Part shown: one piece after another, positions 22,388-47,130 of the stretch
Numbering within the stretch: position 1 is the stretch's first letter
Layout of the letters: each line of letters starts with the position of its first letter
DNA from: an uncultured Candidatus Saccharibacteria bacterium
GTDB taxonomy: Bacteria; Patescibacteriota; Minisyncoccia; Phycocordibacterales; UBA2100
Direction of reading: 5' to 3'
Assembly: GCA_964586255.1 (NCBI GenBank)
Contig: CAZPGE010000002.1
Location: 42,065-106,064, forward strand
DNA: 64,000 nt
Translations under genes and position numbers: made by a program
The notes under the pieces: generated by a model
The model's database searches: none
The model's input: the letters and a program-made list of their open reading frames with translations, nothing else
What the model was told of the DNA's origin: nothing

Positions 22388-23494
22388 CTAAGAGAGTCCG
22401 ATGAAGTCGTTCTGCGGGTCGTAACAGACGCTCGGGTCGAGGTCCTTGTAGTAGTGGAAGTCCTCATCAATAAAATCGTACGATGCCTGCTGCATGATGA
22501 CATTGTGCAGAGAGCCGCGCTTCATCTTGTTGTCGCGATAATCCGCATCTTTCGTGAAATTGTATATTGCCTCCTTGCACACCCACTTGTACGTGCGCCA
22601 CTCATCTTTGATTCTTTTGTCCATATTATTCAGACTCCAGAGTTGGAATTCTTCCGTCCCGTAAAAAGATGCGTTGCGCGTGCGCACGTACTCAGGAGTT
22701 ATTTTATCGACATTGCGTGCTGCCACGGTCGTGAGCGTACGTAGGTAGGTGTTCTGCCATTTTTGCGAGAAGTTAATCCACCAGAGGTAATCGAAGTGCG
22801 TCTCGATGGGGACGGGCGCTTTTTCTATAGTGCGCTCGAAGAGGTCGAGAAAGAGATTGGTCGCTGCATCGTTCTGGATTGTCTCGTTCCAGAAGGTAAA
22901 GAAAGTCTCGCGCTTGCGCGGCGTATGAATGATTGCGGGCCCAAAGCGAGACATGAGTCTTCCGACTGAATCGAAGCCAAACAGCTGGTCGTTCTGCTCT
23001 CCGTTGGTCACGATGGAGTTACCGCCGAGAAGATAGGGATACATCATCGACGACCCCGCGCGAAGTTTTCCGCGCACGTATGTCTCGTAGAACAGCGGGT
23101 ATTCTGCGATAGATTCTTCTGTCATAAGTACGACGATGCGCTTCCTCTGCTCCGCAGTCGCGTTTTTTAGAAGTGAGGTGAGCACGAGTGTGGAATCGAT
23201 ACCGCCGGACCACAAGGTGTGGATGTCAGCGTCAAAAGAATCCGCGCGCGCGAGAAGCTCCAGCGCTCTCTCGTCGCACAGCTGTTCAAACGTCTTCTTC
23301 ATCGGTCGCATGGCGGGGATAGGGGTGATGAGCCTGGTCTTAATCGGCCAGCGAATGGAGCCGGTACGGTCAGTGGGAGCGAGTCCGACGGAAAACATCT
23401 TTCCTAGCAAGCGAAACGAGTTCACGCCGGGCAGTTCTGCATAGGGTGAGCGCGCGAGTACCAACGTGTTGTATTGGATGATTTCTTTTGCCAT
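22388..23494 (-). CDS. PP-loop ATP pyrophosphatase superfamily protein (AsnB C-terminal/QueC/TilS-like)
   Basis: SGGIDST PP-loop motif (..IHTLWSGGIDSTLVLTS..). Confidence 0.6.
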   Translation of the reverse strand: MAKEIIQYNTLVLARSPYAELPGVNSFRLLGKMFSVGLAPTDRTGSIRWPIKTRLITPIPAMRPMKKTFEQLCDERALELLARADSFDADIHTLWSGGIDSTLVLTSLLKNATAEQRKRIVVLMTEESIAEYPLFYETYVRGKLRAGSSMMYPYLLGGNSIVTNGEQNDQLFGFDSVGRLMSRFGPAIIHTPRKRETFFTFWNETIQNDAATNLFLDLFERTIEKAPVPIETHFDYLWWINFSQKWQNTYLRTLTTVAARNVDKITPEYVRTRNASFYGTEEFQLWSLNNMDKRIKDEWRTYKWVCKEAIYNFTKDADYRDNKMKRGSLHNVIMQQASYDFIDEDFHYYKDLDPSVCYDPQNDFIGLS

Positions 23495-23499
23495 AGAGA

Positions 23500-24204
23500 C
23501 TAGACGAGTTGTTTCGAATGACAGTCCAACATGAATTGTCGGACTATCTCAGGTATCTTATCGGATTCCGTTTCTCGTTTGATACGGTCAAAGTACCTAA
23601 GCCTCAGCGTCTCTGTCTTGGAGAGAAATGCATCATCCAACTCCGCATTAAAAAGAATACTGTCAGCTGCTTCGCGCAGCGAGACATTCGTGAGGTCTGC
23701 GTACTGCACCACGTAGGGGATGCTCATGAGCATGGACTCATCGTACCCGGACAGTTTGAATTTCTCGGCCTGCATCTTTTTCGTGAGGTAAATCGTCTCT
23801 TGAAAGGCCAGCCCTGTCCCTATCTTCGTGCGCAACCAATTGATTTCTGCGATAACTTGGGTCACGGCTTCGATGCGAGCTACAGCGAGCTTGGCCCGAG
23901 CGGGCAGACTTGGATCGACATCGTGTGGTTGTAGTCTCACGAACGCATGAAACTTTTGCTTGTACCCCCACTCGGGAAGTCGCACCGGATCCATAGAAGC
24001 AAGCGAAAGGCCTGTGTTATCGATAGCTGAGGTGCGAGGGGTAAATTGTGCGTCGGGTATGGAATCCGCGACAACCGCTACGGCTGCGACGTGGGGATGC
24101 AGCGCGAGAAGCGCAAATGTAGGTGGACCGACGAACAGTGCCCCGTAATTCACCGCCGCGCCCCTTGATTCTGTGCCACCGAACACCTTCTTTATGAGAG
24201 ACAT
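23500..24204 (-). CDS. Hypothetical protein (start trimmed to Met133 of the long ORF to remove the 330-bp overlap with the upstream gene)
   Basis: ORF in operon context. No motif recognised. Confidence 0.35.
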   Translation of the reverse strand: MSLIKKVFGGTESRGAAVNYGALFVGPPTFALLALHPHVAAVAVVADSIPDAQFTPRTSAIDNTGLSLASMDPVRLPEWGYKQKFHAFVRLQPHDVDPSLPARAKLAVARIEAVTQVIAEINWLRTKIGTGLAFQETIYLTKKMQAEKFKLSGYDESMLMSIPYVVQYADLTNVSLREAADSILFNAELDDAFLSKTETLRLRYFDRIKRETESDKIPEIVRQFMLDCHSKQLV

Positions 24205-24266
24205 CGAATCGATTATATCGGATGCGCCATCGATTGCGAACGGATGGGCATTTTCTGACGTATCGC

Positions 24267-25148
24267 TTACACGCGTGGAGTGAGTTGAGCTGTAAATTCT
24301 GGAATCGAAAGTGTATACCTCAGCACATGCTCGTCGGCTCTTTTTTTCAGCGCGTCTTTCAGCGCAGTCAAATCTGGAGAGATATTTTTCAAGCCGCGTG
24401 ATTTCGGACGATGCGCAAGGGTAGGCCAATATTGCTGAGACACGAGTCGTCTGAGCAGGGAAGCGTTTGCCGGATGATTGAATACATCCGGATGGTCGAG
24501 CGCGAAATCTATAAGCGGTATGCGTAGGTACGATAGACAAAGCTCGGGGGTGCTGTACAGAAAGTACGGTTCGTGTGAGGTGTTGTTTCTCTGGAGCCAT
24601 TCGAGTGGGACACCAAGTCCCGAGTTACATTCGAGGAATACGTCACTCCGAGACGGGTGCGCGCGCCCTGAATCAATTTTGTAGAGCTGTTTTCCCGCCG
24701 CTATGACTGCGTAGCCCTCCATCGCATCGACGGTCTCCATAAGTGCAATCTGCATATATCGTAGAAGATCAGAAGAGATGTAGTCTTGTTCCGTGTAGAG
24801 CAGCACCTGTTTTTCCAAGAAGCCACGCATGTCTAGGCGGACGATTTTTTGGTGCACTCCGTGTTTTTGACACCAGGTGCGGGCATGCTCGACCTCGTGC
24901 TCATTTGTTCCGTCGCCATACGCAATCGTCAGGACAGAGAAATTAATGCCCTGGTCAAAAAAAGAGTGGCACATTATCTCACTGTCGAGACCTCCGGAGG
25001 AGCAGAGCCAGAGGGGCTTCTGAGCTTTTGAAGCGATAGAGCGTGCCGCAGCGTAGAGTTCTTCTTTCCAGGTCAGTGGCTCTCGTGTACATGCGTGGAA
25101 CGTCACGGAGAATTTTCCAGCTTTGGTCTCACAGTGCATCGCGCTCAT
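24267..25148 (-). CDS. Second PP-loop ATP pyrophosphatase superfamily protein (start trimmed; the Arg-rich N-terminal extension of the ORF is probably not translated)
   Basis: CSSGGLDSEIMC PP-loop motif. Confidence 0.55.
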   Translation of the reverse strand: MSAMHCETKAGKFSVTFHACTREPLTWKEELYAAARSIASKAQKPLWLCSSGGLDSEIMCHSFFDQGINFSVLTIAYGDGTNEHEVEHARTWCQKHGVHQKIVRLDMRGFLEKQVLLYTEQDYISSDLLRYMQIALMETVDAMEGYAVIAAGKQLYKIDSGRAHPSRSDVFLECNSGLGVPLEWLQRNNTSHEPYFLYSTPELCLSYLRIPLIDFALDHPDVFNHPANASLLRRLVSQQYWPTLAHRPKSRGLKNISPDLTALKDALKKRADEHVLRYTLSIPEFTAQLTPRV

Positions 25149-25314
25149 GGAGGTACTATACGACAGAATCATCGGCCTACATGCGGTGACTTTATGCCAG
25201 GCAGGCAACCCGCGACGCTTGACAAGGTGCATGGAGCGATGGATAGTAGAGGTCGGAAGGAGCCGCGCATGCGCTTGGCATGTGTTCGGTGCGCCTGTCC
25301 CCATGGAGATAGCT

Positions 25315-25648: not shown

Positions 25649-27295
25649 TTATGATTTCCGTTTTAGACAGTACATCTCATTAGCAACGGTTCGGGCGAAA
25701 AGATGTTTCGTAGTCTCATTGCACGCAATTTTACTCATCATACGCTCGCTTGCCTGGAAATGGCCGCGATGTGTTCCTCGTTCTCTATCCAATTCGTACA
25801 AGCGTCCGTCGTTGGATCCAATAAAAAGTGAGTCGCCAATTGCGATAGGGGAGCCAAACACGCGGCCGTTGGTCTCAAACGCCCAGCGACGTTTCTTGGT
25901 GTCGATGTCTATCGCATAGACGGATTTGTCGAGCGACGCGACATATACCGTATCCCCCTGGACAAGAGGAATCGAATAGATGGCGCCGCCGGTTTCGTAT
26001 GCAAATACGGGTTCGCCAGTATCAGCGGCGAGAGCGTACAACTTTCCGTCCATCGAAGCAACAAACACGAGTCTTCTCTTTGCATCATACGCGGGTGCGG
26101 TCTTTATATCTCCGTCAGTCTTGTATCGCCACATGAGCGCGCCCGTATTTGCTTCGTAGGCGTAGCAGATGCCATCGTTGCTCCCAATCACCACCATCCC
26201 TTCTTCTTTTATATAGAGAGGAGTCCCGTGTGTGAGTGAGGAGGTGATGTCTTGCCAGCGTTTTTCGCCTGTATGCATATCGAGCGCGACAATACCGCCG
26301 CGCTTACCGAATAGCCCAAACTCAAGTCCGATGTAGAGAAGCCCAAGATCCGGCGCAATAGAAGGAGACGAGCCAACCCAATCAGCATCGTCGTATCCCC
26401 ATTTCTTCACCCCCGTCTTTGTATCAAGTGCGTACACGACTCCATCGTACGCACCAAAATAGAGCACTCCCTTGTGGAGTGCAGGTGTAGAGAGAATCCC
26501 CTTACCTTCAGGGTGCTTGCCGACCGTGAATTCCCAGATGATTGCACCAGTCCTCTGGTCGAGCGCCCGCATAGTGCCATCGTCGCATCCGAGAAAGACG
26601 AGCGTATCATCGAGCACCGGCGCAGATTTCTGTACGACAAGGTGGAGGCTGGGGTGCGGCCCCGTATAGCGCCACACAGTCTCAAACTCAGAGTTCTTAT
26701 TCGGCTGCACTTTCTTCAGAAGAGGTATCCCAAAATCTTCGAGGGTAAAAAGATGATTCACCGCGATGCTTCTGTCCTCGAGTGATTTGTATGCATCGCG
26801 CGCCCTGAAGGCGAGCATGGCAAATACATCCGTGACTTTTCTCCCCGTGTCGGCGAGTACTGCGAGCTGTTTCTCAAATGTCGAACCGGTGTTGATAAGA
26901 TCGTCGACGAGAATGACGGGGTGCTCGTCGAGCGTGCCCTCAATCTGGCGCATGAGCCCCTGACGTTTGCGTGACTTTCTTATATAGAAACCATTCACCG
27001 GTGTGCCACGCTCTATGCCCTTCATCACGATGGCGGCTACTAATGCTATGGCGGCCGTTTCCATCGCACCGACCTGGAAAGGGTATTTCGGTGCGTATCG
27101 TTCCCAAAATATCTCGGCGTAGCGATTGAGCCAGTATGGCTGGAGCATGAGAGCGCGAAAATCAAAGAGCCACGACTCGCGCCTCCCCGTACTTTCCGAC
27201 GCGACGATGACCGCACCCGATGATCGTCGCGCAAGGGCGACAGACTCTATTGTTCGGTGTAGGTCGCTATATTTATTGTCCATGCGAATCGTCAT
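25649..27295 (-). CDS. Fusion protein: type I phosphoribosyltransferase domain + PQQ-like beta-propeller repeats
   Basis: PRPP-binding motif VILVDDLINTGSTF. At least six repeats of xDGxxYAxDxxTGxxxW type in the C-terminal 350 aa. Confidence 0.7.
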   Translation of the reverse strand: MTIRMDNKYSDLHRTIESVALARRSSGAVIVASESTGRRESWLFDFRALMLQPYWLNRYAEIFWERYAPKYPFQVGAMETAAIALVAAIVMKGIERGTPVNGFYIRKSRKRQGLMRQIEGTLDEHPVILVDDLINTGSTFEKQLAVLADTGRKVTDVFAMLAFRARDAYKSLEDRSIAVNHLFTLEDFGIPLLKKVQPNKNSEFETVWRYTGPHPSLHLVVQKSAPVLDDTLVFLGCDDGTMRALDQRTGAIIWEFTVGKHPEGKGILSTPALHKGVLYFGAYDGVVYALDTKTGVKKWGYDDADWVGSSPSIAPDLGLLYIGLEFGLFGKRGGIVALDMHTGEKRWQDITSSLTHGTPLYIKEEGMVVIGSNDGICYAYEANTGALMWRYKTDGDIKTAPAYDAKRRLVFVASMDGKLYALAADTGEPVFAYETGGAIYSIPLVQGDTVYVASLDKSVYAIDIDTKKRRWAFETNGRVFGSPIAIGDSLFIGSNDGRLYELDRERGTHRGHFQASERMMSKIACNETTKHLFARTVANEMYCLKRKS

Positions 27296-27304: not shown

Positions 27305-28018
27305 CTATCCTTTACACACGGTAATCGCAAGCACCGTCTGTTCCTGCTCCTCGTCGAGGTCGAGGAGCTCGGAGATACGTTCGTCGTTGAATCCTGCGTA
27401 CGGTCTGACGTTAAGATCGAGTGCGCATCCAACAAGCAAGATATTCTCACTCATGTGTCCCGCCTCGAGGAGTCCGTGCGTGTATGAGATGTCTCCATAT
27501 TTTGCGGAGGAGCGAGCCCATACGCTCGTGAAGACGATAAGAGTCGAGAGCGGGAGCGGCTCAGGGTACTTTGCCAGACTCTTCATATCGAAATCTTGGG
27601 GCAGATTCCAGAGCTGTTCCAGTGAATGTTCAGTCGGATTGTAGTGAAATACTGCTGGGGCCTGTGACTCGAGCGCCGTTGAGATGACGTATGTCTCTAT
27701 TGGATAGAGCCCGCCTCCGGAGGGGTAGTTTCGATAGTGTGCTCCGGGTCGCTTCTGAAGGGCGAGACCGAGGAGGGTGCCACACTCCTGAAGTGTAAGG
27801 TCGATACTTGGATTACCACTCAAAGCCGAATGACGCTTCTTGATTGCATCGGGCAGGGTGATACTGAGACCTTCTGGCTGCGGGAGAGGCACCTTCTGCA
27901 TCCGCGAATACACCTTGTGTACTCCTCGAGGCACGTCCTCCGGGCGGTGCGTGGCGCCCCTCTTTGTAAGCAGAGCACGGCGCAGTTCGGTATGTAAATG
28001 CGATATAAATGATGTCAT
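27305..28018 (-). CDS. SagB-type dehydrogenase (nitroreductase superfamily; TOMM azoline oxidase-like)
   Basis: YPSGGGLYPIETYV matches the PSAGGLYP signature of McbC/SagB dehydrogenases. Start overlaps the YcaO stop (ATGA). Confidence 0.75.
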   Translation of the reverse strand: MTSFISHLHTELRRALLTKRGATHRPEDVPRGVHKVYSRMQKVPLPQPEGLSITLPDAIKKRHSALSGNPSIDLTLQECGTLLGLALQKRPGAHYRNYPSGGGLYPIETYVISTALESQAPAVFHYNPTEHSLEQLWNLPQDFDMKSLAKYPEPLPLSTLIVFTSVWARSSAKYGDISYTHGLLEAGHMSENILLVGCALDLNVRPYAGFNDERISELLDLDEEQEQTVLAITVCKG

Positions 28019-29508
28019 GAAAATGGATGGGGCCTATCAGCAAACGGCTTGCTCAAGGGAGTATATCCGAGTGCTTTAGGGATGTCGTGCCATCTCGTGC
28101 CGCCAAATTGTTGGACCCACTCGTTGAGGTACGTCGGCTGCAGCTTCGGCATGATGACCATCTCAATGTGCAGAGATGAGGGATTTTTTGCCGATGAGGT
28201 GAGAGGGACCGAGATGCATTCAAGATGTGAGTCTTTGCACCACTGCACCACTCTCTCATAGTGTTCCTCCACAGTATCGATGTCCCACGCTTTGTCACCA
28301 ATCTCGATTTCAGGACCGCGAATCATAAACTCAAGATGCTTCGCGTTTTCAGGTACGCCCCAATAGTACAGGCGCTCGCGGTGGCCGATTTTTTCCGAGG
28401 GGGTGCGCATATCCCAGACGTTTCCCGCGCCAGTCCACAGGCTGTGCGCGCGATATGCCCGGAGCGCCTCAGTCATGGCTTTCTCGATGGCGTAGGGAAG
28501 TGACTGATGTGCCTTGAGGCCGACCACAAAGCGTGGCGCATTGCCACCAATGTCTTCGATGACCACCGCCACGGCGTGTGTCGGCGCGTCAGTGGGAAGC
28601 TGCAGTACGTGCGTTTTGAATTGGTACCTTTCGCACTGTGCGATAGCCCTGGCAAGCGATGGGTATTTCGCGCAGAGAGGGTCGAGTGCAAGGCGGGGAA
28701 GCGTCAATTGGTTAAACCACATCATCATATAGGCATCTCGCTCGATGACTTCAAGCGCTCCTGCAAGTCGTGCGCCGTTCTGTGTTGGCCATGTGGCGAG
28801 TCCGTTCGTGTTTTGTTGTCGTATGATCGGCTCTTCCGTACCACCTGTCATAGCGCGAGGTCGAACACCGCTCACCGTTTGCGCCGGTACGTATATGCGC
28901 TCTCCACTCACGAGAGAAGTGCCCTGAATCCAGAGGTACTCAGCATCTGGGCGGAGTTGCCGCTGAGGATGGCGTGTCCGTTGCTCATCGGAAAATCCGA
29001 CGAAATCCTCCGGGGCCACACGCGGGCCGATTGCACTGATCGCTTCCGAGGTAGCTCTTTTGGGGCTCATGAAATAGTCGTCCTGCGTCATCCAGATGTA
29101 TCGCTCAAGGGCCTCTGCGAGCGCGGCGTAGAGGGCACTCTCGTCATCTTCCCACGAAGTTCCTCCTACGTTGTGACTTGTGGGGTCGTTGCAGATAGCG
29201 TACCAACCTTTGGTTCGCGGTAAATCCGGCCAGAGATTTTTCACTGGTCCGAATGATTGTATGACCCCGTGCTTTTTCAGTAGTGCAGCCAGTGTGAGCG
29301 GTTCGAGTATATCAAGACGAGAAAAGGGTATGCTCCGCAAGTCCTTCACGACTTTGACACCAAGGCTTTTTTCGAGATACTCCGAGAGAGCCCCGAGCGC
29401 TCTCGCTTTAATATCGGAGCTGGAGAGTGTCTCACGGAACGGCACGGCGTCAAAAATCATGCGCCAATCATAGCAGTACCCATACCTCCCAGAAAGCATT
29501 CGCTCCAT
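28015..29508 (-). CDS. YcaO domain protein, paralog 1 (start set at MERMLSG with GGAG RBS; the longer ORF to 29952 carries a Pro/Gln low-complexity antisense artefact)
   Basis: GGTSWEDDESALYAALAEALERYIW and GALEVIERDAYMMMW motifs typical of the YcaO ATP-binding region. 60% identity to the 33278 paralog. Confidence 0.75.
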   Translation of the reverse strand: MERMLSGRYGYCYDWRMIFDAVPFRETLSSSDIKARALGALSEYLEKSLGVKVVKDLRSIPFSRLDILEPLTLAALLKKHGVIQSFGPVKNLWPDLPRTKGWYAICNDPTSHNVGGTSWEDDESALYAALAEALERYIWMTQDDYFMSPKRATSEAISAIGPRVAPEDFVGFSDEQRTRHPQRQLRPDAEYLWIQGTSLVSGERIYVPAQTVSGVRPRAMTGGTEEPIIRQQNTNGLATWPTQNGARLAGALEVIERDAYMMMWFNQLTLPRLALDPLCAKYPSLARAIAQCERYQFKTHVLQLPTDAPTHAVAVVIEDIGGNAPRFVVGLKAHQSLPYAIEKAMTEALRAYRAHSLWTGAGNVWDMRTPSEKIGHRERLYYWGVPENAKHLEFMIRGPEIEIGDKAWDIDTVEEHYERVVQWCKDSHLECISVPLTSSAKNPSSLHIEMVIMPKLQPTYLNEWVQQFGGTRWHDIPKALGYTPLSKPFADRPHPFS

Positions 29509-29524
29509 ACTCCACTCCAGAGCA

Positions 29525-29920
29525 TTGAACATCGTCGGCATTGTTGCGATAATGACTGGTATGGCGATGTTTGAAAAGATGAGTCGTGGCGTGCAAGGCA
29601 TTGTTGGGAAAATCGGGAGTGTAGCGCTCATCATGTTCGGATTTTTGCTGGTGTTTTCTTCCACGCATTCGAAAGCGGGGACTGCCCAGTCGCAGGATGG
29701 AATATTTGGCGCCGACGTCGCCCACGCAGATGCTCCGTATGACCCCAACAGCTGCACTACGGGCGACTGCGTCGCGTGTGCAGCCTGCACGAGTGACGGA
29801 GGGGCGGGTTGCGGCACCGGCGGTTGCACGGGCGGCGCCGATGGAAGTGGTGCTGGAGGAAGCTGTGCCGGCGATTGCGACAGCGGCGACGGCGGCTGCG
29901 GCTGCGGTGCCAGCGGCTGA
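29525..29920 (+). CDS. Candidate RiPP precursor-like peptide 1: hydrophobic N-terminal segment + Cys/Gly/Ser/Thr-rich C-terminus (alternative start 29579)
   Basis: ...DVAHADAPYDPNSCTTGDCVACAACTSDGGAGCGTGGCTGGADGSGAGGSCAGDCDSGDGGCGCGASG*. Divergent from YcaO-1. Confidence 0.5.
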   Translation: MNIVGIVAIMTGMAMFEKMSRGVQGIVGKIGSVALIMFGFLLVFSSTHSKAGTAQSQDGIFGADVAHADAPYDPNSCTTGDCVACAACTSDGGAGCGTGGCTGGADGSGAGGSCAGDCDSGDGGCGCGASG

Positions 29921-29943
29921 TTGCTGCGCATGGCAATGAATAC

Positions 29944-31044
29944 ATGTCTCATTCACTAAAACTCGTTGGTTGGCTCATTGCTTTGCTTGTCATTCCCGCG
30001 GGGTTGTATGCTCTGTATACATATATTTTCTATGACCCGAATCCTAGTCAGTTGACGCGGGATTTGGAGCAGCTCGTCGATGCAAAAGTACGTGGCGATG
30101 ATGCTGCAGCTCTCGCGCAGTACCAGCAGATTCTGAGCGACCCCACATCGACGGCAGAAGAGCGGGCCATAGCCGATGTCTATATAGCCGGTACCGAATT
30201 CAGTCTTTCCGGAGACATGAGCTCGCGACTCAGCGATGTGCGGAAAATGAAGAGGATTGTCGCTGACAGCACACTCTCCGCGACAGTGCGTGCCGCAGCG
30301 ATGAGCGTTCTGGGTAATGCATATGCGGTCTCGGGGGGAGATCCCGCGGTGTTCGCCGAGATCTACAAGGGCGCACCATTTGACTCCTACCTTGTCCCGG
30401 ATAGACCTCAGCTCTCTGCCATCAATCTACTGAAAGAGTCATACGCCATGCAGCCATCGTCGTTTGCGGCGAGCAAAGTGGCCGAGCTTGCTTCAGGTCG
30501 GTATTTTGCGAATCCGCAGCAGGACGCAACTACGACAGCGGCCTACGTCGCACTGGCGGAAGAGTACTTGAACAAGGCGGACATCGCGGCTCTTAGTGAG
30601 GCGCAGCAAAGACCTGCCACATACGCCAGTAGCGATCGATATATTTTGTATAGACTATCGAGAGCGATAACCGTCGGTCGTCTGGCAATACAAAAAGGAG
30701 AGCCATACAAAAATTCCTACCGTAAGGAATTCAATAACTTCATTGCACTTGCGCAATCAATACAGAGCACTCTCGCACACAATGTGGTGTTCAATGCGCG
30801 CTTCCAATACGCGAGGATTCTCGAGGCAGATGGGGATACGACAGCCGAGAAAACACAGCTCGACATACTTGCGCGAGAGTTGGATAGACTCTCCAATCCA
30901 AACACCATTCCGTTCGTGCTCTCCTTGAGAAATGCACGCGCACAGCCGACCGAAGCGATGTGGCTCTCAGTGCAAAGAATGTCGTCGACTTCGCCGGAGT
31001 TTAAGACCGCAATCGACAAGCTCACGGCCGCTTCATCGAGCTAA
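29944..31044 (+). CDS. TM-anchored alpha-helical protein, paralog A (366 aa)
   Basis: N-terminal TM LVGWLIALLVIPAGLYALYTYIF. Homologous to 35098..36231 (KGAPFDSYLV vs KDPPYSTFFV). Confidence 0.55.
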   Translation: MSHSLKLVGWLIALLVIPAGLYALYTYIFYDPNPSQLTRDLEQLVDAKVRGDDAAALAQYQQILSDPTSTAEERAIADVYIAGTEFSLSGDMSSRLSDVRKMKRIVADSTLSATVRAAAMSVLGNAYAVSGGDPAVFAEIYKGAPFDSYLVPDRPQLSAINLLKESYAMQPSSFAASKVAELASGRYFANPQQDATTTAAYVALAEEYLNKADIAALSEAQQRPATYASSDRYILYRLSRAITVGRLAIQKGEPYKNSYRKEFNNFIALAQSIQSTLAHNVVFNARFQYARILEADGDTTAEKTQLDILARELDRLSNPNTIPFVLSLRNARAQPTEAMWLSVQRMSSTSPEFKTAIDKLTAASSS

Positions 31045-31889: not shown

Positions 31890-32429
31890 GCGCCTGAGCG
31901 CAAAGGAGCATGGTCATTGCAGCGACCCGCTACCTGTAAAAAACATACTATGCTTCGCATGAAGGAGCAAGGAAGTCGGCGGGCGGTCACCCGCCCGCCG
32001 CCCCGGATGCTGCTTACGAGCTACTACACCCTAGTCGTACACGTGCCTACCGTGTGGTCACAAACACTGACCGGTGGTGGGGCACCTGTTGCACTTTGGT
32101 GCTTCCGACTTGCTGGCCGAAGCCACTTTCGTCGGATGGCTTGCACGAGTGCCTGCGAGGGCGCTCGTTGATGCAAACACGACTGCAATCGTGCCTGCAA
32201 GCAGCATCATCACTGCGTTTCGCATATGAGTCTCCGATATGCGATGAAGACGGAGGTTTACACGGGAATGTCCGCCAGTCTCCTAGGAGCTCGTCTACGC
32301 AATACTTGAAGAACGATCCCGCGCAGACCTTAGCGCGGTGGAGTGAGTGAGTCAATTTTTGATACTGCTGGTACGATCGCGTGGAGGAATTCCTTGATGT
32401 ATCCCAATAAATATGTACTAGTTCCGGTA

Positions 32430-32481: not shown

Positions 32482-32730
32482 ATGCACAAGAATATCGTGA
32501 TTGCGGCACTCGTAGTGTTCGGAGTCGCCGCCTCGTCGCCCTCGCAGGCGGGGAAGGCATCGGCTCGCACCTGCAGTGGGCAGCACAGCATCTGCCTCAA
32601 CTTCTGCAGCACATCGGGGCGGGGCGGGGACTGTACCAGTGATTGCGCCGGTCGTCAGGCCACGTGCCTGCAGACTGGAACCTACATGTGGATCAACAGT
32701 CCCACGATTAGGGGACTGGTTCGCAAGTAA
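32482..32730 (+). CDS. Small secreted Cys-rich peptide (82 aa, 6 Cys)
   Basis: Signal peptide MHKNIVIAALVVFGVAASSPSQA. Mature part GKASARTCSGQHSICLNFCSTSGRGGDCTSDCAGRQATCLQTG... Confidence 0.45.
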   Translation: MHKNIVIAALVVFGVAASSPSQAGKASARTCSGQHSICLNFCSTSGRGGDCTSDCAGRQATCLQTGTYMWINSPTIRGLVRK

Positions 32731-32887: not shown

Positions 32888-32928
32888 TCGGGATGAAACC
32901 GGGAGCCCGGGTACCCGCCTTGGAGGCA
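32888..32928 (+). promoter_or_regulatory. Conserved 5' leader, copy 2
   Basis: gtcgggatgaaaccgggagcccgggtacccgccttggaggcaatg. Confidence 0.4.
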
Positions 32929-33174
32929 ATGATGAAAAAGATCCTTCTCGGTACCGTCGTGGGTACCGCCCTGCTTGCGATGTTCGCGCTTACGCCGGCG
33001 TCGGCGCAGGGAACGAACTATGCCGGTCAGTGCTCGAGTTACTCGGCACCGGCGGACTGTCTGAAATGCTGCGGAACATTTCACAAGAGCTCGTACCTGA
33101 GCGCGGAATGCACGAACTCGTGCAAGATCAGCAACTTCCGCGATTCGAGGAACATGTCGCCGAAGCGCAAGTAG
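32929..33174 (+). CDS. Small secreted Cys-rich peptide (81 aa, 6 Cys)
   Basis: GGAGG RBS. Signal peptide MMKKILLGTVVGTALLAMFALTPASA. Mature part ...GQCSSYSAPADCLKCCGTFHKSSYLSAECTNSCKIS... Confidence 0.45.
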   Translation: MMKKILLGTVVGTALLAMFALTPASAQGTNYAGQCSSYSAPADCLKCCGTFHKSSYLSAECTNSCKISNFRDSRNMSPKRK

Positions 33175-33277: not shown

Positions 33278-34783
33278 TTAGGCGAATGGGTGTGGCTCGT
33301 CCGTAAACGGCTTCTCACGAGGGGTGATGTCGAAGTGCTGCGGTACGCTTTTCCAGCGCTCTCCGCCCAGTTGCTGGAATTTCTCACTGAGATGCATCGG
33401 TTGAAGCTCCGGTATGACCACCATCTCTATCGACCATGGGGTGGGATTCTTTTTGGAGGTGCCAAGAGAGACCGACACACATTCGTATCCCGAATCTCGA
33501 CACCAGCTCACGATGCGTTGGAGGTGCTCATCCGGCGTGTCGTTTTCCCATTCGGCAAGCGGCACCTCGATTTCTTTTCCCTGCAGAAGCACTTCAAGCT
33601 TTTTTGCATTCTCCGGTGCGCCCCAATACAGAATACGGTCGTAGTGTCCGACCTCGCTTTTCGAGACAGAGGGGTCCCATCGTTTTCCTGCGAGGTCCTG
33701 TCGTCGACACGAAAAGCGCGCGCGGAGTGCTTCTGTCGTTGCTCTCTCTACAGCATGTGTCAATGATCGATGCGCTTTCATACCGAAAGAAAATCGTGGC
33801 ACGTGTCCACTTTCGTCTTCGAGGATGACACACACGGCGTGTGCGGGTGCATCGGTCAGGAGCTGCAGAGCATGCACCTTGAGGCGATAGCGCGCACATG
33901 TACCCACGAATTCCGAGAGCGTCGTGCTGCGTGCGCAAAGACCCTCAAGTGATATCCGGGGCAAGGCGAGTTGATTGAGCCACATAATCATGTACGCATC
34001 GCGCTCGACTACCTCGAGAGCACCGGCAAGTCGTGCGCCGCTTTGCGTGGGCCATGTGGCGAGCCCGGTGGTATTGCGATGCCGAATAAGTGGTTCTTCA
34101 GAATTCCCCAGATCTTGAACGGCGGTTATCGTCTGAGCGGGCACATACGTCGGGTTTCCCGAGACAAGCGAGATTCCTCGCGTCCAGAGAAACGTACTCG
34201 AGGAGTCGAGTCTCCATCCCGGATTCTTTTCGCGTTGCTCCGGGGAGAATGCGACGAAGCGCTCGGGCGCAATCGATGCGCCGTATTTTTGTATAACGTT
34301 ATGCGTCGCCTGCACTGGCGCTACAAAATAGTCTCGCTCCTCAAGCCAAATATACCGCTCAAGCGCTTCTGCAAGAGCGGCTGTAAGGGCGTTCGCATCG
34401 CTCTTCCACGCACTTCCACCGACAGGATTGTTTCTCTTGTCGCCACACACCGCATTCCACTGCGCAATTCGGGGCTCATCAGCAAGATGCGGAGCTCGTA
34501 CAATGGACGCTATCACCCCGCTCTGTTTTAGTTTCTTTGCCAACTCAAATGAATCCAAAAGCTCCGGACGATTAAATGGAATCTGATTCGCATCGAATGC
34601 GATGGTGACGCGCAATTTTCTTTCCAATATATTGAGAATCGAATAGATCGCTCTTTCTTGGAATCCTCCGCGGATTGGGGAGTAGAAATGAGCGAAGGGA
34701 ATGCCTTCAAATATCATGTGGGGATGATAGCAGTCATGCTCAAGGCGAGGAAGCTTCAAGATGCGCGGACTATTATTATCCAC
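33278..34783 (-). CDS. YcaO domain protein, paralog 2 (501 aa)
   Basis: GGSAWKSDANALTAALAEALERYIW and GALEVVERDAYMIMW motifs. Shares the distinctive C-terminal region with YcaO-1 (...YWGAPENAKKLE...PHPFA). Confidence 0.75.
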   Translation of the reverse strand: MDNNSPRILKLPRLEHDCYHPHMIFEGIPFAHFYSPIRGGFQERAIYSILNILERKLRVTIAFDANQIPFNRPELLDSFELAKKLKQSGVIASIVRAPHLADEPRIAQWNAVCGDKRNNPVGGSAWKSDANALTAALAEALERYIWLEERDYFVAPVQATHNVIQKYGASIAPERFVAFSPEQREKNPGWRLDSSSTFLWTRGISLVSGNPTYVPAQTITAVQDLGNSEEPLIRHRNTTGLATWPTQSGARLAGALEVVERDAYMIMWLNQLALPRISLEGLCARSTTLSEFVGTCARYRLKVHALQLLTDAPAHAVCVILEDESGHVPRFSFGMKAHRSLTHAVERATTEALRARFSCRRQDLAGKRWDPSVSKSEVGHYDRILYWGAPENAKKLEVLLQGKEIEVPLAEWENDTPDEHLQRIVSWCRDSGYECVSVSLGTSKKNPTPWSIEMVVIPELQPMHLSEKFQQLGGERWKSVPQHFDITPREKPFTDEPHPFA

Positions 34784-34830
34784 ACATTTCGTTTTTATAT
34801 GACACCCGCAGGGTGAATAATGGGGGAATC

Positions 34831-35091
34831 ATGGTCGCCGTACATATTGCGTATTCGCGAACGCGCGCCATATTTCGCGGAATATCGACCGTATTCCTCA
34901 TGGTATCGGGCTTTTTCTTGATTTTCTTTAGCGCACCTCGCGTCCCGGGCATGTCGGATATTTCTGATGTCGGAGTAGCACATGCCGATGCTCCTGTGGA
35001 TCCTAACGCCTGTACCGACGGCACCGTCCCTGTCGATTATTTTGTCTATGTCGACCCTGGCTGTGGCTGTGGCTGTGGCTGTGGCATCTAA
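34831..35091 (+). CDS. Candidate RiPP precursor-like peptide 2 (86 aa from MVAVHIAY; a possible internal start MSDISDVG would give a 46-aa peptide)
   Basis: GGGGG RBS. ...FLMVSGFFLIFFSAPRVPGMSDISDVGVAHADAPVDPNACTDGTVPVDYFVYVDPGCGCGCGCGI*. Divergent from YcaO-2, 48 bp between starts. Confidence 0.5.
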   Translation: MVAVHIAYSRTRAIFRGISTVFLMVSGFFLIFFSAPRVPGMSDISDVGVAHADAPVDPNACTDGTVPVDYFVYVDPGCGCGCGCGI

Positions 35092-35097
35092 CATAGT

Positions 35098-36231
35098 ATG
35101 GAGCCAGAAAACAACGGACCGCAGAGCCACTTTGCTGGCATAGTGCTTGTCGTACTCGGCGTCCTGGTCGCAGCTCTCATTGGAGGATTCTTCTATATCT
35201 ACGACCGAGTTAAAAACCAGGAGAACGTGACCGACTATACCGTGACAAACACACCCTTCACCGTACTAACTCGAGATAATCAATACTTCGCACAGGCCAG
35301 CGCGGCGGCTCGCGCCGGGAATTATGAGCAGGCAATACAGCTGTACGAGCAAGCGCTCACGCTCGCAGAGGATTCCGCTCAAGCAAGCCAGATACAATTT
35401 ACAATCGCATTGCTTGAAGATCGATACGGGAGCGCGCCTCGAGCAATCGACCTTTACAAGCAGATTGTCATCAGCTCTACCAACGACAACCATCCGCTTC
35501 TGAAAGCGAATGCCATAGCGAATATGGTCGAGCTCTACTATAGAAATGGTGACTCAGCGGTGACGGAACAGATATTTAAAGACCCTCCATATTCGACCTT
35601 TTTTGTTTCCAATGATTTGAGTCTTTCATACCGACGCCTCGCAGAATATGCGGTATCTTTTTACCCGCTCGCTCTTCCTGAGCTGCGCATCGCGAGCTGG
35701 TATGCATATCGCTTGACGGATGTAAGTCGAATCGCAACAGGAGAGGCCACAAGTACCTATCCGGGCATAATCCAGAATGCAATTCTGCGTGCGGACCAAG
35801 ACATAGACCGCATGCGGGCGAACACCGACGACGCGCAGCTCATCCCGAACATCCTCACGCGCAAAAGTGCACTCTATCTCAATATGCATGACGCGGGTCT
35901 CGCGACCGCGCAGGAAACCGAAGAAGTCAACAAAGCTGCGCTCACGATTTACTCCGCGATTGGTGCGCCAGATGCTATCGACGGCTTTGCGAGATACTAC
36001 TACGCGGTGTTTCTCGCAGAACAGGGGTCCTCACGCGCGACCGATTTGCAGGCGGTTGTCTCACCGTTCTATGACAATCCTGGCTACAAAGGTTCGCTCG
36101 CCCTCGCTTTCTTTGCGAGCGAGAAAACCAACGCTCTCAGCCAGAAGTCACGTTTGGTGAAAATCGCTAATGCCGATCCCAAATTCAAGGCGCTCCTGAT
36201 ATCGCTCGGTTGGAATGAAAAAGATCTCTAG
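35098..36231 (+). CDS. TM-anchored alpha-helical/TPR-like protein, paralog B (377 aa)
   Basis: N-terminal TM HFAGIVLVVLGVLVAALIGGFFYIY. Homologous to 29944..31044. Confidence 0.55.
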   Translation: MEPENNGPQSHFAGIVLVVLGVLVAALIGGFFYIYDRVKNQENVTDYTVTNTPFTVLTRDNQYFAQASAAARAGNYEQAIQLYEQALTLAEDSAQASQIQFTIALLEDRYGSAPRAIDLYKQIVISSTNDNHPLLKANAIANMVELYYRNGDSAVTEQIFKDPPYSTFFVSNDLSLSYRRLAEYAVSFYPLALPELRIASWYAYRLTDVSRIATGEATSTYPGIIQNAILRADQDIDRMRANTDDAQLIPNILTRKSALYLNMHDAGLATAQETEEVNKAALTIYSAIGAPDAIDGFARYYYAVFLAEQGSSRATDLQAVVSPFYDNPGYKGSLALAFFASEKTNALSQKSRLVKIANADPKFKALLISLGWNEKDL

Positions 36232-36928
36232 TGTGTCTGATGCCTTTTGGCATCGTTCGGCTACATTTTACCTGTGGCTCTGTCTCGGTGTCTTGTTGGT
36301 GATAGGGCTATCGGTGATTGCACTTGAGAAACACGTCGCGTCGAAAGGGAGCGCCAAGACAGATAGTGAGTCGCTCATCGTGCGCCGCATTACAGAAGAC
36401 GACCATGTCTTGGGCGCAGTCTCAGCTCCAGTACAGGTGATCGTGTACGCGGATTTATCATGCCCGTACTGCAAAAGCTTTTTTCAATCTACGCTCCCAA
36501 AGCTCCGCGCAGCATACGGGGACAAGATTGTTGTGGCGTATAGGCATTTGCCGCTTGCGCAGCATCCCGCGAGCCGTCTTGAAGCGAACGCAGCCGAATG
36601 CGTGGCGCAAGCGGCAGGCAACGATGCATTCTGGCGATTTGTGCAAAAGGTGTATGAACACCCTAAATTTAGGGACGGACTTGCTCTGTCAGATCTCGTC
36701 TCTCTTGCGCAGGGCGATGGCATATCACGGGTACGCATGTCTGCGTGCATAGAGTCTGAAGAATATGGTGACCGAGTACGTACCGATGCGCTTGAAGCAT
36801 CGGTCGCGGGTATTTCCGTGACTCCCGGCGTCGTGCTCAAGTCATCTACACGCGCTCTGATTGTGCAGGGCGATTACCACCGTGAGATTGACGCAGGAAT
36901 TGAATACCTGCTTCAGAGCGGCATTTGA
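36215..36928 (+). CDS. Membrane-anchored DsbA-like thiol:disulfide oxidoreductase (thioredoxin fold)
   Basis: CPYC active-site motif (..VYADLSCPYCKSFF..). N-terminal TM. Confidence 0.65.
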   Translation: MKKISSVSDAFWHRSATFYLWLCLGVLLVIGLSVIALEKHVASKGSAKTDSESLIVRRITEDDHVLGAVSAPVQVIVYADLSCPYCKSFFQSTLPKLRAAYGDKIVVAYRHLPLAQHPASRLEANAAECVAQAAGNDAFWRFVQKVYEHPKFRDGLALSDLVSLAQGDGISRVRMSACIESEEYGDRVRTDALEASVAGISVTPGVVLKSSTRALIVQGDYHREIDAGIEYLLQSGI

Positions 36929-38300: not shown

Positions 38301-39335
38301 TTGTTTATGACGTATTCGTCTTTCTCTCAGATTGTTCGTCCACATATCCGCGCGCGCCTGTATCTCGTCGTGCTCCTCGCGCTCACCGCAATGCTTGTTG
38401 CGGGTCTCAGTGCTCACAATACAAGCGAGACGTTTGCATCTGCCGAAGTCGAATTCACCGACATTTCTGCACGCGGCATGCACATAGTCCCGGCGTCGTG
38501 CCCTTCGGACCAGCACTACGTGGGGGAGTGCGGCCCGGCTACATGCACGCCGCCCTACACTGGCACCTATCCCAACTGTGTCTACGTACCTCCGGGTACG
38601 GGCGGTCCTGGCGGTGGCGGTGGTGGAATCCCGGGTGTCTCTGGAAATGCGTGCGTTATCGTGCTGAGTCCATCCACGATTACCCTCGGAGGGAGTTCTG
38701 CGATGTCGTGGAATTCAAGTTATTCAGTATTCGGCATTCCGTTTGCCATGAGCGGTACCATCTCTCCCACTCCTGGCGCTGTGGCCGCGTCGGGCGCGAC
38801 GACCGTGAGCCCATCGGTGTCTACCACATACATCGGAACGTTTACCTCAACCGGCGAAGGCCGCCTTCTGGGGGACAAGGGTTCGGGTTGGTTTTCGCCC
38901 GTTACATGCAGTGCTCGCCTCACGGTAATTCCTGCGAATGAAGTGCCTGGAAGTTGCAGTGTGTACAACTTTTGTAGAGGATCGGATGTCTACCAACGGA
39001 CAGCTAGCTGCACAGACCAATTTGTCCGAAGCTGTGCATTTGGATGTGCAAACGGCGTGTGTCTTGGCGCCCCTGCGCCCACCGGATTCTTGCGCGCGCA
39101 GCCCTCGCTTGTGCGACAGGGCGACACAACGACAGTGGAGTGGGGTGCAACGCAGGTGAGCTCGTGTACCGTGACTGGTACCAACGGAGACTCATGGAGT
39201 GGTAAAAGCGGGACGCAGACATCGAGGGATATTACTTCGAGGACCACATACACACTTTCGTGCATTGGACTCGATGAATCTGTGCTTGAGATGACCGCGG
39301 TGGTCAATGTTACGCCAATATTCGATGAGCAGTAG
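38301..39335 (+). CDS. Secreted protein with Gly-rich stretch, 6-Cys module and C-terminal Ig-like domain
   Basis: C-terminal ...CTVTGTNGDSWSGKSGTQTSRDITSRTTYTLSCIGLDESVLEMTAVVNVTPIFDEQ* parallels the ...NILPVFNEQ* ends of the 7119 and 9077 proteins. Confidence 0.6.
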   Translation: MFMTYSSFSQIVRPHIRARLYLVVLLALTAMLVAGLSAHNTSETFASAEVEFTDISARGMHIVPASCPSDQHYVGECGPATCTPPYTGTYPNCVYVPPGTGGPGGGGGGIPGVSGNACVIVLSPSTITLGGSSAMSWNSSYSVFGIPFAMSGTISPTPGAVAASGATTVSPSVSTTYIGTFTSTGEGRLLGDKGSGWFSPVTCSARLTVIPANEVPGSCSVYNFCRGSDVYQRTASCTDQFVRSCAFGCANGVCLGAPAPTGFLRAQPSLVRQGDTTTVEWGATQVSSCTVTGTNGDSWSGKSGTQTSRDITSRTTYTLSCIGLDESVLEMTAVVNVTPIFDEQ

Positions 39336-41679: not shown

Positions 41680-42528
41680 ATGGCTATCAAAACCTACAAA
41701 CCAACATCAAAGTCGCAGCGTCAGCATACGTCTATCGACTACCGTAAGGCGCTCTCCGGTCACAAGCCGCTCAAGAGTCTCCTCAAGGGAAAGAAGCGCA
41801 TGGGCGGACGCAACAGCTTCGGCCGCATCACCGTGCGTCACCAGGGTGGCGGGCACAAAAAGCGCCTCCGCGATGTCGACTTCACGTTTGAGAAGAAGAA
41901 CATTCCTGCAAAGATAACCTCTATCGAGTACGACCCATTCCGCTCAGCATTCATCGGTCTTGCAGTCTATGCAGACGGTGCAAAGACCTACATCGTGCTC
42001 CCGCAGAAGGTCAAAGTCGGAGATACGTTTATCGTGAGCGAGACCGCACCGATAAAACTTGCCAATCGTTTGCCGCTCGCAAACATGCCGGTCGGTACAT
42101 TCGTATACAACATTGAGCTCAAGCCAGGCGCGGGAGGCCGTATCGCACGATCTGCCGGCAACTACGCGGAAGTCGTCGCACAGGATGCCGGATACACGCA
42201 CCTCAAGATGCCTTCAACAGAAATTCGCCGCGTCATCGGTACCTCATGGGCGTCCGTCGGGGAAGTCTCCAACGAAGAACACCGCCTCGAGAATTGGGGT
42301 AAGGCAGGCCGCACGCGCTGGAAGGGTATCCGCCCGACTGTCCGCGGTACTGCGATGAACCCTGTCGACCACCCGCACGGCGGAGGTGAAGGTAAGCAGG
42401 GTCGCGGTCACCGCAGGCAGCGCACCATGTGGGGCAAGCCATCCGGTAAGGGCCAAAAGACGCGCCGTCCAAAGAAGTACAGCAATGTCTTCATTGTCAC
42501 GCGTCGAAAAGTGGGTAAACGAAAATAA
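41680..42528 (+). CDS. rplB: 50S ribosomal protein L2
   Basis: ...HQGGGHKKRLR...GTAMNPVDHPHGGGEG... Confidence 0.96.
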   Translation: MAIKTYKPTSKSQRQHTSIDYRKALSGHKPLKSLLKGKKRMGGRNSFGRITVRHQGGGHKKRLRDVDFTFEKKNIPAKITSIEYDPFRSAFIGLAVYADGAKTYIVLPQKVKVGDTFIVSETAPIKLANRLPLANMPVGTFVYNIELKPGAGGRIARSAGNYAEVVAQDAGYTHLKMPSTEIRRVIGTSWASVGEVSNEEHRLENWGKAGRTRWKGIRPTVRGTAMNPVDHPHGGGEGKQGRGHRRQRTMWGKPSGKGQKTRRPKKYSNVFIVTRRKVGKRK

Positions 42529-42680
42529 CATAATAAAAGGCCCGGTCTGCCAGTTGGCAGACCGGGCCTTTTTGTTGTCTGTGGCGTGGTGCTATATGCA
42601 AAAAATTGACAGAAAGGGCGCGTTCGTATACATTGTGCCCACTCCCGCAGAAGCGGGTTTTCAATTGCAAAGCAAGAATT

Positions 42681-43022: not shown

Positions 43023-43025
43023 TCT

Positions 43026-43454: not shown

Positions 43455-43462
43455 ATATATAT

Positions 43463-47127: not shown

Positions 47128-47130
47128 CGT

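Follow-up and report, generated by a model that had tools for sequence, protein, structure and literature searches.

A probable linear azol(in)e-peptide gene cluster of a Candidatus Saccharibacteria bacterium with a membrane-anchor-like precursor leader and two conserved accessory proteins

On what peptide does the YcaO/SagB enzyme pair of an uncultured Candidatus Saccharibacteria bacterium act, and how does it find this substrate without an RRE or E1-like partner? The 64,000-nucleotide stretch of DNA analysed here (contig CAZPGE010000002.1; hereafter designated the window) had received an initial annotation, which proposed a minimal thiazole/oxazole (TOMM/LAP) RiPP system, and an ORF check located all of its genes where they had been placed. 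On the minus strand, the stop of YcaO1, a bare-domain YcaO cyclodehydratase (28015..29460; 481 aa), overlaps as ATGA with the start of a SagB-type FMN dehydrogenase containing YPSGGGLYP, a predicted azoline-to-azole oxidase (27305..28018; 237 aa), both as first described, and downstream lies a 548-aa protein (25649..27295), in which an orotate-PRTase-like domain (residues ~1–195) is fused to a PQQ/BamB-like beta-propeller (hereafter PRTase-propeller). On the plus strand, precursor peptide 1 (29561..29920; 119 aa), whose C-terminus is exactly DCVACAACTSDGGAGCGTGGCTGGADGSGAGGSCAGDCDSGDGGCGCGASG, is followed, 23 bp after its stop, by a co-transcribed gene for a membrane-anchored TPR-like solenoid protein (29944..31044; 366 aa). 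As described below, this cluster probably represents a RiPP system of the linear azol(in)e-peptide (LAP/TOMM) type, whose precursor would be targeted to the membrane.

The start of YcaO1 is likely at 29460, judging from a conserved M-I-F start and the length of ~475–485 aa of most of the 120 matches listed. The metagenome gene calls place it at 29541 (508 aa), and a 645-aa ORF extending to 29952 was rejected, its Pro/Ala/Gln-rich N-terminus being an antisense reading of the peptide gene. Peptide 1 most likely starts at 29561 (MAMFEK...), the TTG at 29525 being disfavoured. With the starts thus revised, the divergent spacer (29461..29560) measures about 100 bp instead of the 16 to 70 bp estimated initially; under the database gene calls it would be 10 bp. 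The sequence TTGAAC-17-TG-GATAAT at 29525–29553 (+) is a sigma-70-like consensus match alone and no evidence of function; in a relative with a 90%-identical YcaO, the –10 hexamer and the extended –10 TG are kept, and the –35 hexamer is one base off (TTGAAC vs TTGAAT).

Profile searches bore out both enzyme assignments. YcaO1 matched PF02624 (E=4.3e-46) and retains the ATP/Mg site, as do the YcaO-superfamily cyclodehydratases of LAP/TOMM clusters; E116, E119, R120, E237, E240, R241, and a C-terminal PHP are conserved across 56 YcaOs. SagB matched PF00881 (Nitroreductase; 48 bits) and, like LAP/TOMM dehydrogenases, exceeded the cutoff of TIGR03605 (107.6 bits; cutoff, 78.4). Its sequence matches in the PDB are McbC, BmdC, and CyaGox; YPSGG, K-Y-G (the Lys-Tyr motif), and LLEAGH are invariant among 12 orthologues, and the gene is the sole copy within the window. 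TIGR03604 (SagD family) was the best-scoring YcaO model, although both YcaO1 (176.7 bits) and its paralogue YcaO2 (174.9 bits; see below) fell short of the trusted cutoff of 219.25 for SagD-type proteins; on these scores, the two belong to a divergent clade. Pfam and TIGRFAM/NCBIfam-type profile searches gave no RRE or E1/ThiF-like match in any cluster protein, and the predicted YcaO1 structure resembled YcaO domains only. Thus, the suspected absence of an E1-like (C protein) partner holds, as does that of an ocin-ThiF-like (F protein) one, although such RRE-carrying proteins count among the defining parts of LAP/TOMM clusters. LynD and TruD (~775–780 aa) contain leader-binding N-terminal RRE and E1-like domains, which are missing from the present YcaO.

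The small ORF, judged from sequence comparisons, is a real gene well beyond a chance ORF, having 30 database relatives (lowest E value, 4e-24) and, in keeping with the expectation that it would be conserved, orthologues in 7/7 related genome loci. Moreover, comparison with a close relative (L065), which revealed 37 synonymous as against 29 non-synonymous codon changes and an in-frame 3-codon indel, indicates purifying selection on its frame. Peptide 1 consists of a basic N-terminus, a TM helix, a ~21-aa linker, VAHADAP, and a 60-aa C/G/S/T/D/A tail with 10 Cys residues. The long hydrophobic N-terminus noted initially is therefore real, and it is conserved; the tail is indeed Cys/Gly-rich, although not confined to C/G/S/T/D, as Ala and one Val are also present. 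The same architecture recurs in more than 30 relatives, where one TM helix is separated by a linker of 13–24 aa from the near-invariant VAHADAP, followed by a G/S/D/C tail of 26–88 aa. An adjoining small precursor gene encoding a conserved leader and a Cys/Ser/Thr-rich core, here hypervariable, is what is expected of a LAP/TOMM cluster. The family tails are strongly acidic and devoid of basic residues; Gly precedes Cys in 63 of 149 cases and follows it in 74 of 146, and 6 of 29 tails contain no Cys. Lys and Arg are more abundant on the N-flank of the TM helix than on its C-flank in 24 of 30 peptides (positive-inside bias), and the VAHA site, 13–24 residues past the helix, is too distant for a textbook signal-peptidase-I site.

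Two further proteins accompany the enzymes and the peptide. The 366-aa TM-anchored helical protein of the initial annotation is real and conserved; its model resembles peptide-binding TPRs, and its topology is ambiguous on flanking-charge analysis. The PRTase-propeller matches PQQ_2 and Beta-prop_ACSF4 in Pfam (8-bladed-type propeller) and, in its PRTase domain, OPRT 5hkf (E=2e-7). Because the PRPP loop VILVDDLINTGST and a basic flexible RK.RK loop are conserved, while the scores against the PyrE equivalogs lie below the cutoffs (TIGR00336, 46.7 vs 106.8 bits; NF001729, 33.6 vs 245), the domain is PRTase-like rather than PyrE. Reading of its N-terminus by eye gave no sign of a signal peptide or TM segment. 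The gene occurs within a few kb of YcaO, mostly directly after SagB, in 10/10 related loci (L006–L015), and members of its family also occur beside radical SAM/SPASM enzymes, which are RiPP-type maturases of another kind.

A paralogous YcaO/peptide/TPR locus was found 4 kb from the first, at 33278–36231. It comprises YcaO2 (33278..34717, minus strand; 49% identity to YcaO1), which has no SagB of its own, peptide 2 (34831..35091, plus strand; 86 aa), with a TM helix, VAHADAPVDPNAC..., and a tail ending in GCGCGCGCGI, and a 377-aa membrane-anchored TPR protein with Pfam TPR matches (35098..36231, plus strand). Peptide 2 is nearly identical to a 121-aa database protein (P0003), and the two TPR proteins, paralogues of 24% identity, match one and the same orthologue in L009. 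The TOMM/LAP logic stands, but with this second locus and the PRTase-propeller in every related locus, the system is not minimal. The next gene (36215..36928, plus strand) encodes an N-terminally anchored DsbA/thioredoxin-like protein (PF13462, E=3e-20; NF041057), a possible accessory of the cluster; tblastn gave no match in L006–L012. Three minus-strand genes downstream of the PRTase-propeller (22388..25172) are possibly optional accessories: a QueC-like PP-loop protein (24267–25172; PF06508, E=2e-6), a 234-aa protein (23500–24204), and a second PP-loop-motif protein (22388–23494), the PP-loop proteins containing SGGLDS and SGGIDS motifs. Homologues of these genes accompany the cluster in L014, L016, and L041 but not in L006–L012. 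Many of the proteins encoded nearby are N-terminally anchored and extracytoplasmic (DsbA-like, TPRs, Ig-like secreted proteins).

All cluster relatives found are Patescibacteria (CPR), and grouping of the YcaOs at 90% identity gives at least 203 clusters. Synteny of the peptide, TM-TPR, YcaO, SagB, and PRTase-propeller genes extends over 7 genome loci, the loci of 3 peptide homologues that were retrieved independently, and 3 metagenome loci. In every locus retrieved via the AHADAP peptide or the YcaO clade, YcaO adjoins the peptide gene, divergently in 9/10 (L012 and L015 are arranged differently), and SagB accompanies YcaO in 9/10 related loci. Thus, HMM matches, structure comparison, and conserved synteny together support the TOMM/LAP reading of YcaO, SagB, and the adjoining Cys/Gly-rich precursor.

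On this basis, the following pathway may be proposed. The ~100-bp divergent region would drive two operons, one for the peptide and the membrane-anchored TPR protein and the other for YcaO, SagB, and the PRTase-propeller. The precursor would be laid out, in order, as a positive N-terminus, one TM helix, a linker of 18–21 residues, VAHADAP, and an acidic tail with mostly Gly-flanked Cys/Ser/Thr residues. In the cytoplasm, the stand-alone YcaO would use ATP to cyclodehydrate the tail Cys, and probably also Ser/Thr, to azolines, which the translationally coupled SagB flavoprotein would oxidize to thiazoles and oxazoles; YcaO2 and peptide 2 would presumably rely on this one SagB and on the one PRTase-propeller. 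Since no RRE or E1-like docking protein is present, substrate recruitment may depend on VAHADAP, read either by the presumably cytoplasmic OPRT-like/beta-propeller fusion or by the TPR solenoid. The signal-anchor-like N-terminus would place the modified tail at the outer face of the membrane, where it might stay tethered or be cut at or near AHA|DAP. Co-translational export of the tail, if it occurs, would keep the cytoplasmic enzymes from it, a point against this mechanism. A bolder version, which we put forward tentatively and hold to be rather doubtful, is that the PRTase-propeller and the TPR protein replace RRE/E1 docking by reading VAHADAP, perhaps with PRPP-dependent phosphoribosylation (e.g., of the invariant His), and that the product is a tethered acidic polyazole that serves the outer envelope in a housekeeping capacity, for example in metal capture or host attachment, and is not a diffusible antibiotic. 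For the biological role, metal binding or a cell-surface function as against an antibiotic is our guess.

Microcin B17 (McbBCD and McbA), in which McbB is the E1-like/RRE scaffold, McbEFG provide export and immunity, and a soluble 26-aa leader is removed by TldD/E, resembles the present cluster in its enzyme pair and in its core composition with G-C-G contexts. The cluster differs in that its leader is a membrane anchor, its core is Asp-rich, and McbB and McbEFG are missing, no homologues having been found in the window by profile searches, which places it outside the microcin B17 family; the annotated likeness to the microcin B17 core thus extends to G-C-G composition and no further, given the strongly acidic and partly Cys-free tails. 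A diffusible antibiotic of the LAP class, comparable to microcin B17 or phazolicin and formed by cutting the leader at AHA|DAP to give an acidic polyazole toxin against neighbour or host cells, with the TPR protein as immunity or export factor, would agree with the shared enzyme pair and G-C-G-rich core and with the conserved leader and hypervariable core. Moreover, the LAP class is already known from CPR, because an antiSMASH survey (Sharrar et al. 2020, mBio; PMC7298704) reported that 93 CPR genomes contain 110 LAP clusters, 89 of which include a nitroreductase, and read these clusters as potential antibiotics. They (Parcubacteria/Microgenomates) likewise contain YcaO beside a nitroreductase-family gene, together with a putative precursor of small size, and the present cluster very probably belongs to the same population. 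The survey names YcaO, nitroreductase, and peptidase and shows one 84-aa precursor, whereas a conserved peptidase is absent here and the TM leader, VAHADAP, the TPR partner, and the PRTase-propeller are not mentioned in its text; these features were not found in the literature searched. We consider the antibiotic unlikely, as the cluster includes no conserved protease, ABC exporter, or known immunity gene and the tails are acidic, free of basic residues, and sometimes of Cys. Furthermore, the cluster is sometimes duplicated within one small genome and adjoins ribosomal-protein operons in at least two lineages, which would better suit a housekeeping or envelope role.

Still less likely, in our estimate, is that the core of the system is an anchored acidic peptide with the TPR protein and PRTase-propeller, a CPR envelope/metal module with free Cys/Asp (metallothionein-like) or a PRTase-dependent modification, to which YcaO/SagB are optional or act elsewhere. 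This would account for L019, where similar peptides, TM-TPR, and PRTase-propeller occur with no YcaO/SagB within 8 kb, suggesting that the heterocycles may be an add-on; however, no second such locus is known here, and the YcaO of L019 could be located elsewhere in that genome. The Cys-free tails and the many anchored extracytoplasmic proteins nearby point the same way, as does the L010 peptide, whose low-complexity tail runs on into a further folded-looking C-terminal region, which agrees better with a membrane-protein linker than with the core of a RiPP. Against it, YcaO adjoins the peptide gene in all the loci retrieved by peptide or YcaO clade, and SagB accompanies it in nearly all. A further parallel is given by the MNIO-modified, Sec-exported bufferins/oxazolins, in which an export signal in place of a classical leader was called 'highly unusual' and whose Sec-targeted Cys-rich members are metal chelators (PMC12452194); by analogy, a metal-binding role is plausible here. 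They resemble the present peptides in the N-terminal export/membrane signal and in the conversion of Cys to heterocycles, and differ in using MNIO and a DUF2063 partner instead of YcaO and SagB and in having cleavable Sec signal peptides and folded domains; profile searches revealed neither an MNIO nor a DUF2063 domain in the cluster, which is therefore not of the bufferin type.

The best solved relatives of YcaO1 are azoline or thioamide YcaOs (TruD, LynD, MusD, McbD, and MJ1094, the last being the top structural match of its model). That YcaO performs other backbone chemistry (thioamide or amidine), the nitroreductase-fold protein having another role, is highly improbable: BotC/BotCD (bottromycin) and the archaeal McrA-thioamidation YcaO also work without a fused or separate E1-like/RRE partner, and the TIGR03604 score is under its cutoff, but those enzymes make a single azoline, amidine, or thioamide without SagB, whereas here a poly-Cys/Ser core is combined with a bona fide SagB with its conserved Lys-Tyr motif, the C-terminal Pro-rich motif of YcaO is conserved, TIGR03604 far outscores the McrA-thioamidation model (176 vs 56 bits), and profile searches found no TfuA or sulfur-donor gene in the cluster.

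The cluster, a probable LAP-type system with a membrane-targeted precursor, is widespread in CPR/Patescibacteria, bacteria of very small genome size for which hardly any specialised metabolism has been characterised. Within the literature searched, a signal-anchor-like leader appears not to have been described before on a YcaO-type precursor, and experiments have so far documented one only for MNIO-modified bufferins. Of the two uncharacterised conserved partners, one joins a PRPP-motif enzyme to a beta-propeller and is also found alongside radical-SAM RiPP maturases. Knowledge of how these parts work would add to the rules by which RiPP substrates are recognised, and an envelope or metal-handling function important to episymbiotic bacteria could emerge from their study.

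The best-supported reading of locus 1 is a RiPP system of the azol(in)e-modified (LAP) type, in which a membrane-targeted precursor is combined with a YcaO enzyme lacking a canonical docking protein and with two conserved partners, a membrane-anchored TPR protein (TM-TPR) and a fusion of an orotate phosphoribosyltransferase (OPRT)-like domain with a beta-propeller (PRT-propeller). HMM scans bore out the minus-strand YcaO-SagB pair of the initial annotation. Thus, YcaO1 (28015-29460) matched PF02624 with E=4.3e-46, and the 237-aa SagB-family dehydrogenase (27305-28018), whose ATG start codon forms an ATGA overlap with the stop of YcaO1, matched TIGR03605 with 107.6 bits (cutoff 78.4) as well as Pfam Nitroreductase. 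The top NCBIfam model for YcaO1 was TIGR03604 (SagD-type TOMM cyclodehydratase) at 176.7 bits, below the trusted cutoff of 219.25, which places YcaO1 in a divergent clade. The YPSGG motif, a K-Y pair and LLEAGH are kept in SagB orthologues, and the acidic/Arg motifs and a C-terminal P-H-P-F in YcaO homologues. A 645-aa reading of YcaO was rejected on homologue lengths, which were mostly about 475-485 aa among the 120 matches listed of 203 at E<=1e-20; its Pro/Ala/Gln-rich N-terminus is an artefact of reading the GC-rich peptide gene in antisense. In the database (metagenome gene-caller) calls, YcaO has 508 aa and the peptide 122 aa. The conserved M-I-F start common to YcaO1 and its paralogue in the window, YcaO2, makes 29460 the likely start.

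The plus-strand ORF of peptide 1 (29561-29920) ends, in the ORF listing, in exactly the Cys/Gly-rich sequence quoted for it in the initial annotation. Its start, MAM[FL]EKM at 29561, is kept in the close relative L065 (YcaO 90% identical), and a promoter-like TTGAAC-17-TG-GATAAT upstream has there an identical extended -10 and a -35 hexamer differing by 1 base. With the YcaO1 start at 29460, the divergent spacer becomes about 100 bp, replacing the 16-70 bp first estimated; it is 113 bp at locus 2. Between the peptide frame and that of L065, 37 codons differ synonymously only and 29 non-synonymously, and there is an in-frame 3-codon indel; this pattern indicates purifying selection on the reading frame. 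Moreover, a search of GTDB genomes with the YcaO alignment yielded seven related loci, each from a Patescibacteria MAG labelled Saccharibacteria, Paceibacterota or Parcubacteria, and in all of them a small ORF of the same build lies close upstream of YcaO, divergently in six; a profile search retrieved 30 unnamed proteins (E down to 4e-24). Judged by this conservation, on which the initial annotation had made its proposal depend, the small ORF is a real gene.

The gene order is conserved as well. In the seven loci, tblastn placed the TM-helical protein and the peptide on one strand and YcaO, SagB and a protein of about 550 aa on the other. The peptide, a protein of about 370 aa, YcaO, nitroreductase and PRT-propeller were found together again in the contexts of three distant homologues of the peptide, including one without Cys, with an extra polytopic membrane protein in two of the three. 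In L013 (4155-5769) and L014 (4120-5701), this polytopic protein (461-471 aa, with a Cys-containing C-terminal domain) is encoded together with a 64-65-aa TM protein between SagB and PRT-propeller; both are without a Pfam match and absent from the window.

Peptides of this family have a net positive N-terminus followed by one 19-residue hydrophobic helix, so that the hydrophobic N-terminus first noticed in peptide 1 proved to be a family-wide feature. A linker of 13-24 residues (median 18) leads to the almost invariant motif [VI]-A-H-A-D-A-P (VAHADAP), behind which follows a strongly acidic tail of 26-88 residues (38% Gly, 18% Ser, 11% Asp, 10% Cys and 7% Ala, with Lys/Arg essentially absent). 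Lys/Arg residues are more frequent in the N-terminal than in the C-terminal flank of the helix in 24 of 30 peptides (means 2.9 versus 1.5), which together with the acidic tail predicts an N-in/C-out topology with the tail ending outside. VAHADAP is the obvious candidate site for recognition and/or processing; cleavage between AHA and DAP as at a textbook signal-peptidase-I site is unlikely at that distance beyond the TM helix. The peptides had no match in Pfam or NCBIfam.

TM-TPR protein 1 (29944-31044, +; 366 aa), noted in the initial annotation as a TM-anchored helical protein, starts 23 bp after the peptide 1 stop, and its counterpart is syntenic in the related loci. In its model (pLDDT 88, although from a shallow alignment, since the word-index search gave only 6 relatives), an N-terminal TM helix leads into a TPR-like solenoid. 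The model is closest to peptide- or degron-binding TPRs, namely, APPBP2, MalT domain III, APC subunits and the Rap/PlcR/AimR receptors. Pfam and NCBIfam searches were without match, and positive-inside analysis of the TPR proteins gave no clear topology prediction.

The syntenic protein of about 550 aa is the second partner, PRT-propeller (25649-27295, -), which the initial annotation had not included. Over its first 195 residues it is similar to orotate phosphoribosyltransferase (PDB 5hkf, E=2e-7; TIGR00336 below cutoff); the PRPP loop, VILVDDLINTGST, is intact there, a basic loop (R106, K107, R109 and K110) is conserved, and the rest of the protein is a PQQ/BamB-type beta-propeller. The domain is not the organism's ordinary PyrE, being below equivalog cutoffs, almost always propeller-fused and syntenic with SagB. 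Indeed, the 99 representatives found at E<1e-30 in an exhaustive search with the PRTase domain were almost all 530-575 aa long, and the fusion is thus the normal form of the family. In a metagenome scan with the fusion protein, the flanking sequence fetched contained YcaO for 15 of 27 loci; of the nine with full 8-kb flanks on both sides, only five had it within 8 kb, and the association is therefore not obligatory. Elsewhere, radical SAM/SPASM enzymes adjoin the fusion genes (L028 4267-5421; L036 4155-5447 and 6569-7954), a hint that PRT-propeller generally accompanies RiPP-type maturases in these lineages.

A second copy of the system, locus 2 (33278-36928), lies 4 kb from locus 1 and comprises YcaO2 (33278-34717, -; 49% identical to YcaO1), peptide 2 (34831-35091, +), TM-TPR protein 2 (35098-36231, +) and then a DsbA/thioredoxin-like gene. 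Peptide 2, found by a motif search of the window, shares VAHADAPxDPNxCT with peptide 1 and has the tail ...VDPGCGCGCGCGI. SagB and PRT-propeller occur once each in the window, locus 2 having neither of its own, and are presumably shared by both loci. Between the loci are three small ORFs (32058-32225, -; 32482-32730, +; 32902-33174, +) with signal-peptide-like N-termini and Cys-rich mature parts, of which the two on the plus strand had no Pfam match.

The genes that follow PRT-propeller on the same strand (22388-25172) encode PP-loop proteins with SGGLDS (QueC-like) and SGGIDS motifs and a 234-aa protein. The SGGIDS protein (368 aa) and the 234-aa protein had no family match in Pfam and NCBIfam searches. 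L014, L016 and L041 have homologues close to the cluster and the other loci have none there; the three genes may serve in optional tailoring or belong to an unrelated module. An N-terminally anchored secreted family with a common C-terminal domain ending in P(I/S)FDEQ is encoded at 38301-39335, 7119-9080 and 9077-10888, and has relatives within five related clusters (L006, L007, L009, L013 and L014); in the one from L014 there are YSQASY-type Tyr repeats, also seen in some peptide tails, such as those of P0010, P0019 and the L012 peptide. The cluster is situated between EF-G/EF-Tu upstream (88-1239 and 11125-12327) and the S10/spc ribosomal-protein operon with SecY downstream (41680-52054), and the orthologous L014 cluster is directly upstream of the L3-L4-L23-L2 operon. 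A Fic/DOC-family gene (12470-13594) immediately follows EF-Tu, and a 937-aa protein (55322-58135) shows weak TraG/VirD4-type coupling-protein signatures. Six contigs, obtained from several metagenome samples, carry the identical genes; the length of one of these contigs is 0.2-1 Mb.

The cluster type is already known at survey level. In a Microgenomates genome, Sharrar et al. (2020) described an antiSMASH-detected LAP cluster that combines YcaO with a nitroreductase, a peptidase and a precursor of 84 aa, and they counted 110 such clusters in 93 CPR (Patescibacteria) genomes, with a nitroreductase beside YcaO in 89 (PMC7298704); a TM segment and the VAHADAP motif are both absent from their text. 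Literature searches on YcaO in Patescibacteria/Saccharibacteria and on YcaO with phosphoribosyltransferase gave only survey-level mentions. The system has the functional components of a LAP cluster, that is, YcaO, SagB and an adjacent Cys/Ser-rich precursor; its YcaO falls short of the TIGR03604 cutoff and an E1/RRE partner is missing, in agreement with the absence of an E1/ThiF-like protein reported initially. The likeness to microcin B17 suggested there holds for the tail, whose Cys residues are mostly within G-C-G contexts, and not for the system, which is no member of the microcin B17 family.

At L019, two tandem small ORFs (7288-7817, -) with a TM helix, G/D/S-rich tails and the variant motifs TVHGDTSHAC and FASHICS adjoin a TM-TPR protein and PRT-propeller, and neither YcaO nor SagB is encoded within 8 kb. 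At L010 (1-570, -), the G/S/C/D tail of an AHADAP peptide runs into at least 86 aa that are not of low complexity (SFICTELYRQGRLSIAWYEADSRF...), off the contig end and without a Pfam/NCBIfam match. Together with the Cys-free tails of 6 of 29 family members, these loci give reason not to assume that the predicted azole formation is the whole story. In front of a second YcaO-SagB-PRT-propeller set on the L015 contig (6266-10841) lies a gene of the Asp/Arg beta-hydroxylase family (PF05118), which suggests additional tailoring in some lineages.

YcaO, SagB and PRT-propeller depend on ATP, FMN and PRPP, and no hydrophobic N-terminus was noticed in them; presumably, they are cytoplasmic. With the tail predicted to end outside, its modification would have to precede membrane insertion, which would be feasible for a protein of roughly 100 residues targeted post-translationally. 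Export signals on RiPP precursors have been called 'highly unusual', with bufferins as the only case shown by experiment (PMC12452194). The main hypotheses for the product are a surface-tethered or released acidic polyazole, which by analogy with the bufferins and from the neighbourhood of anchored extracytoplasmic proteins may have a metal-binding or envelope role, and a classical antibiotic.
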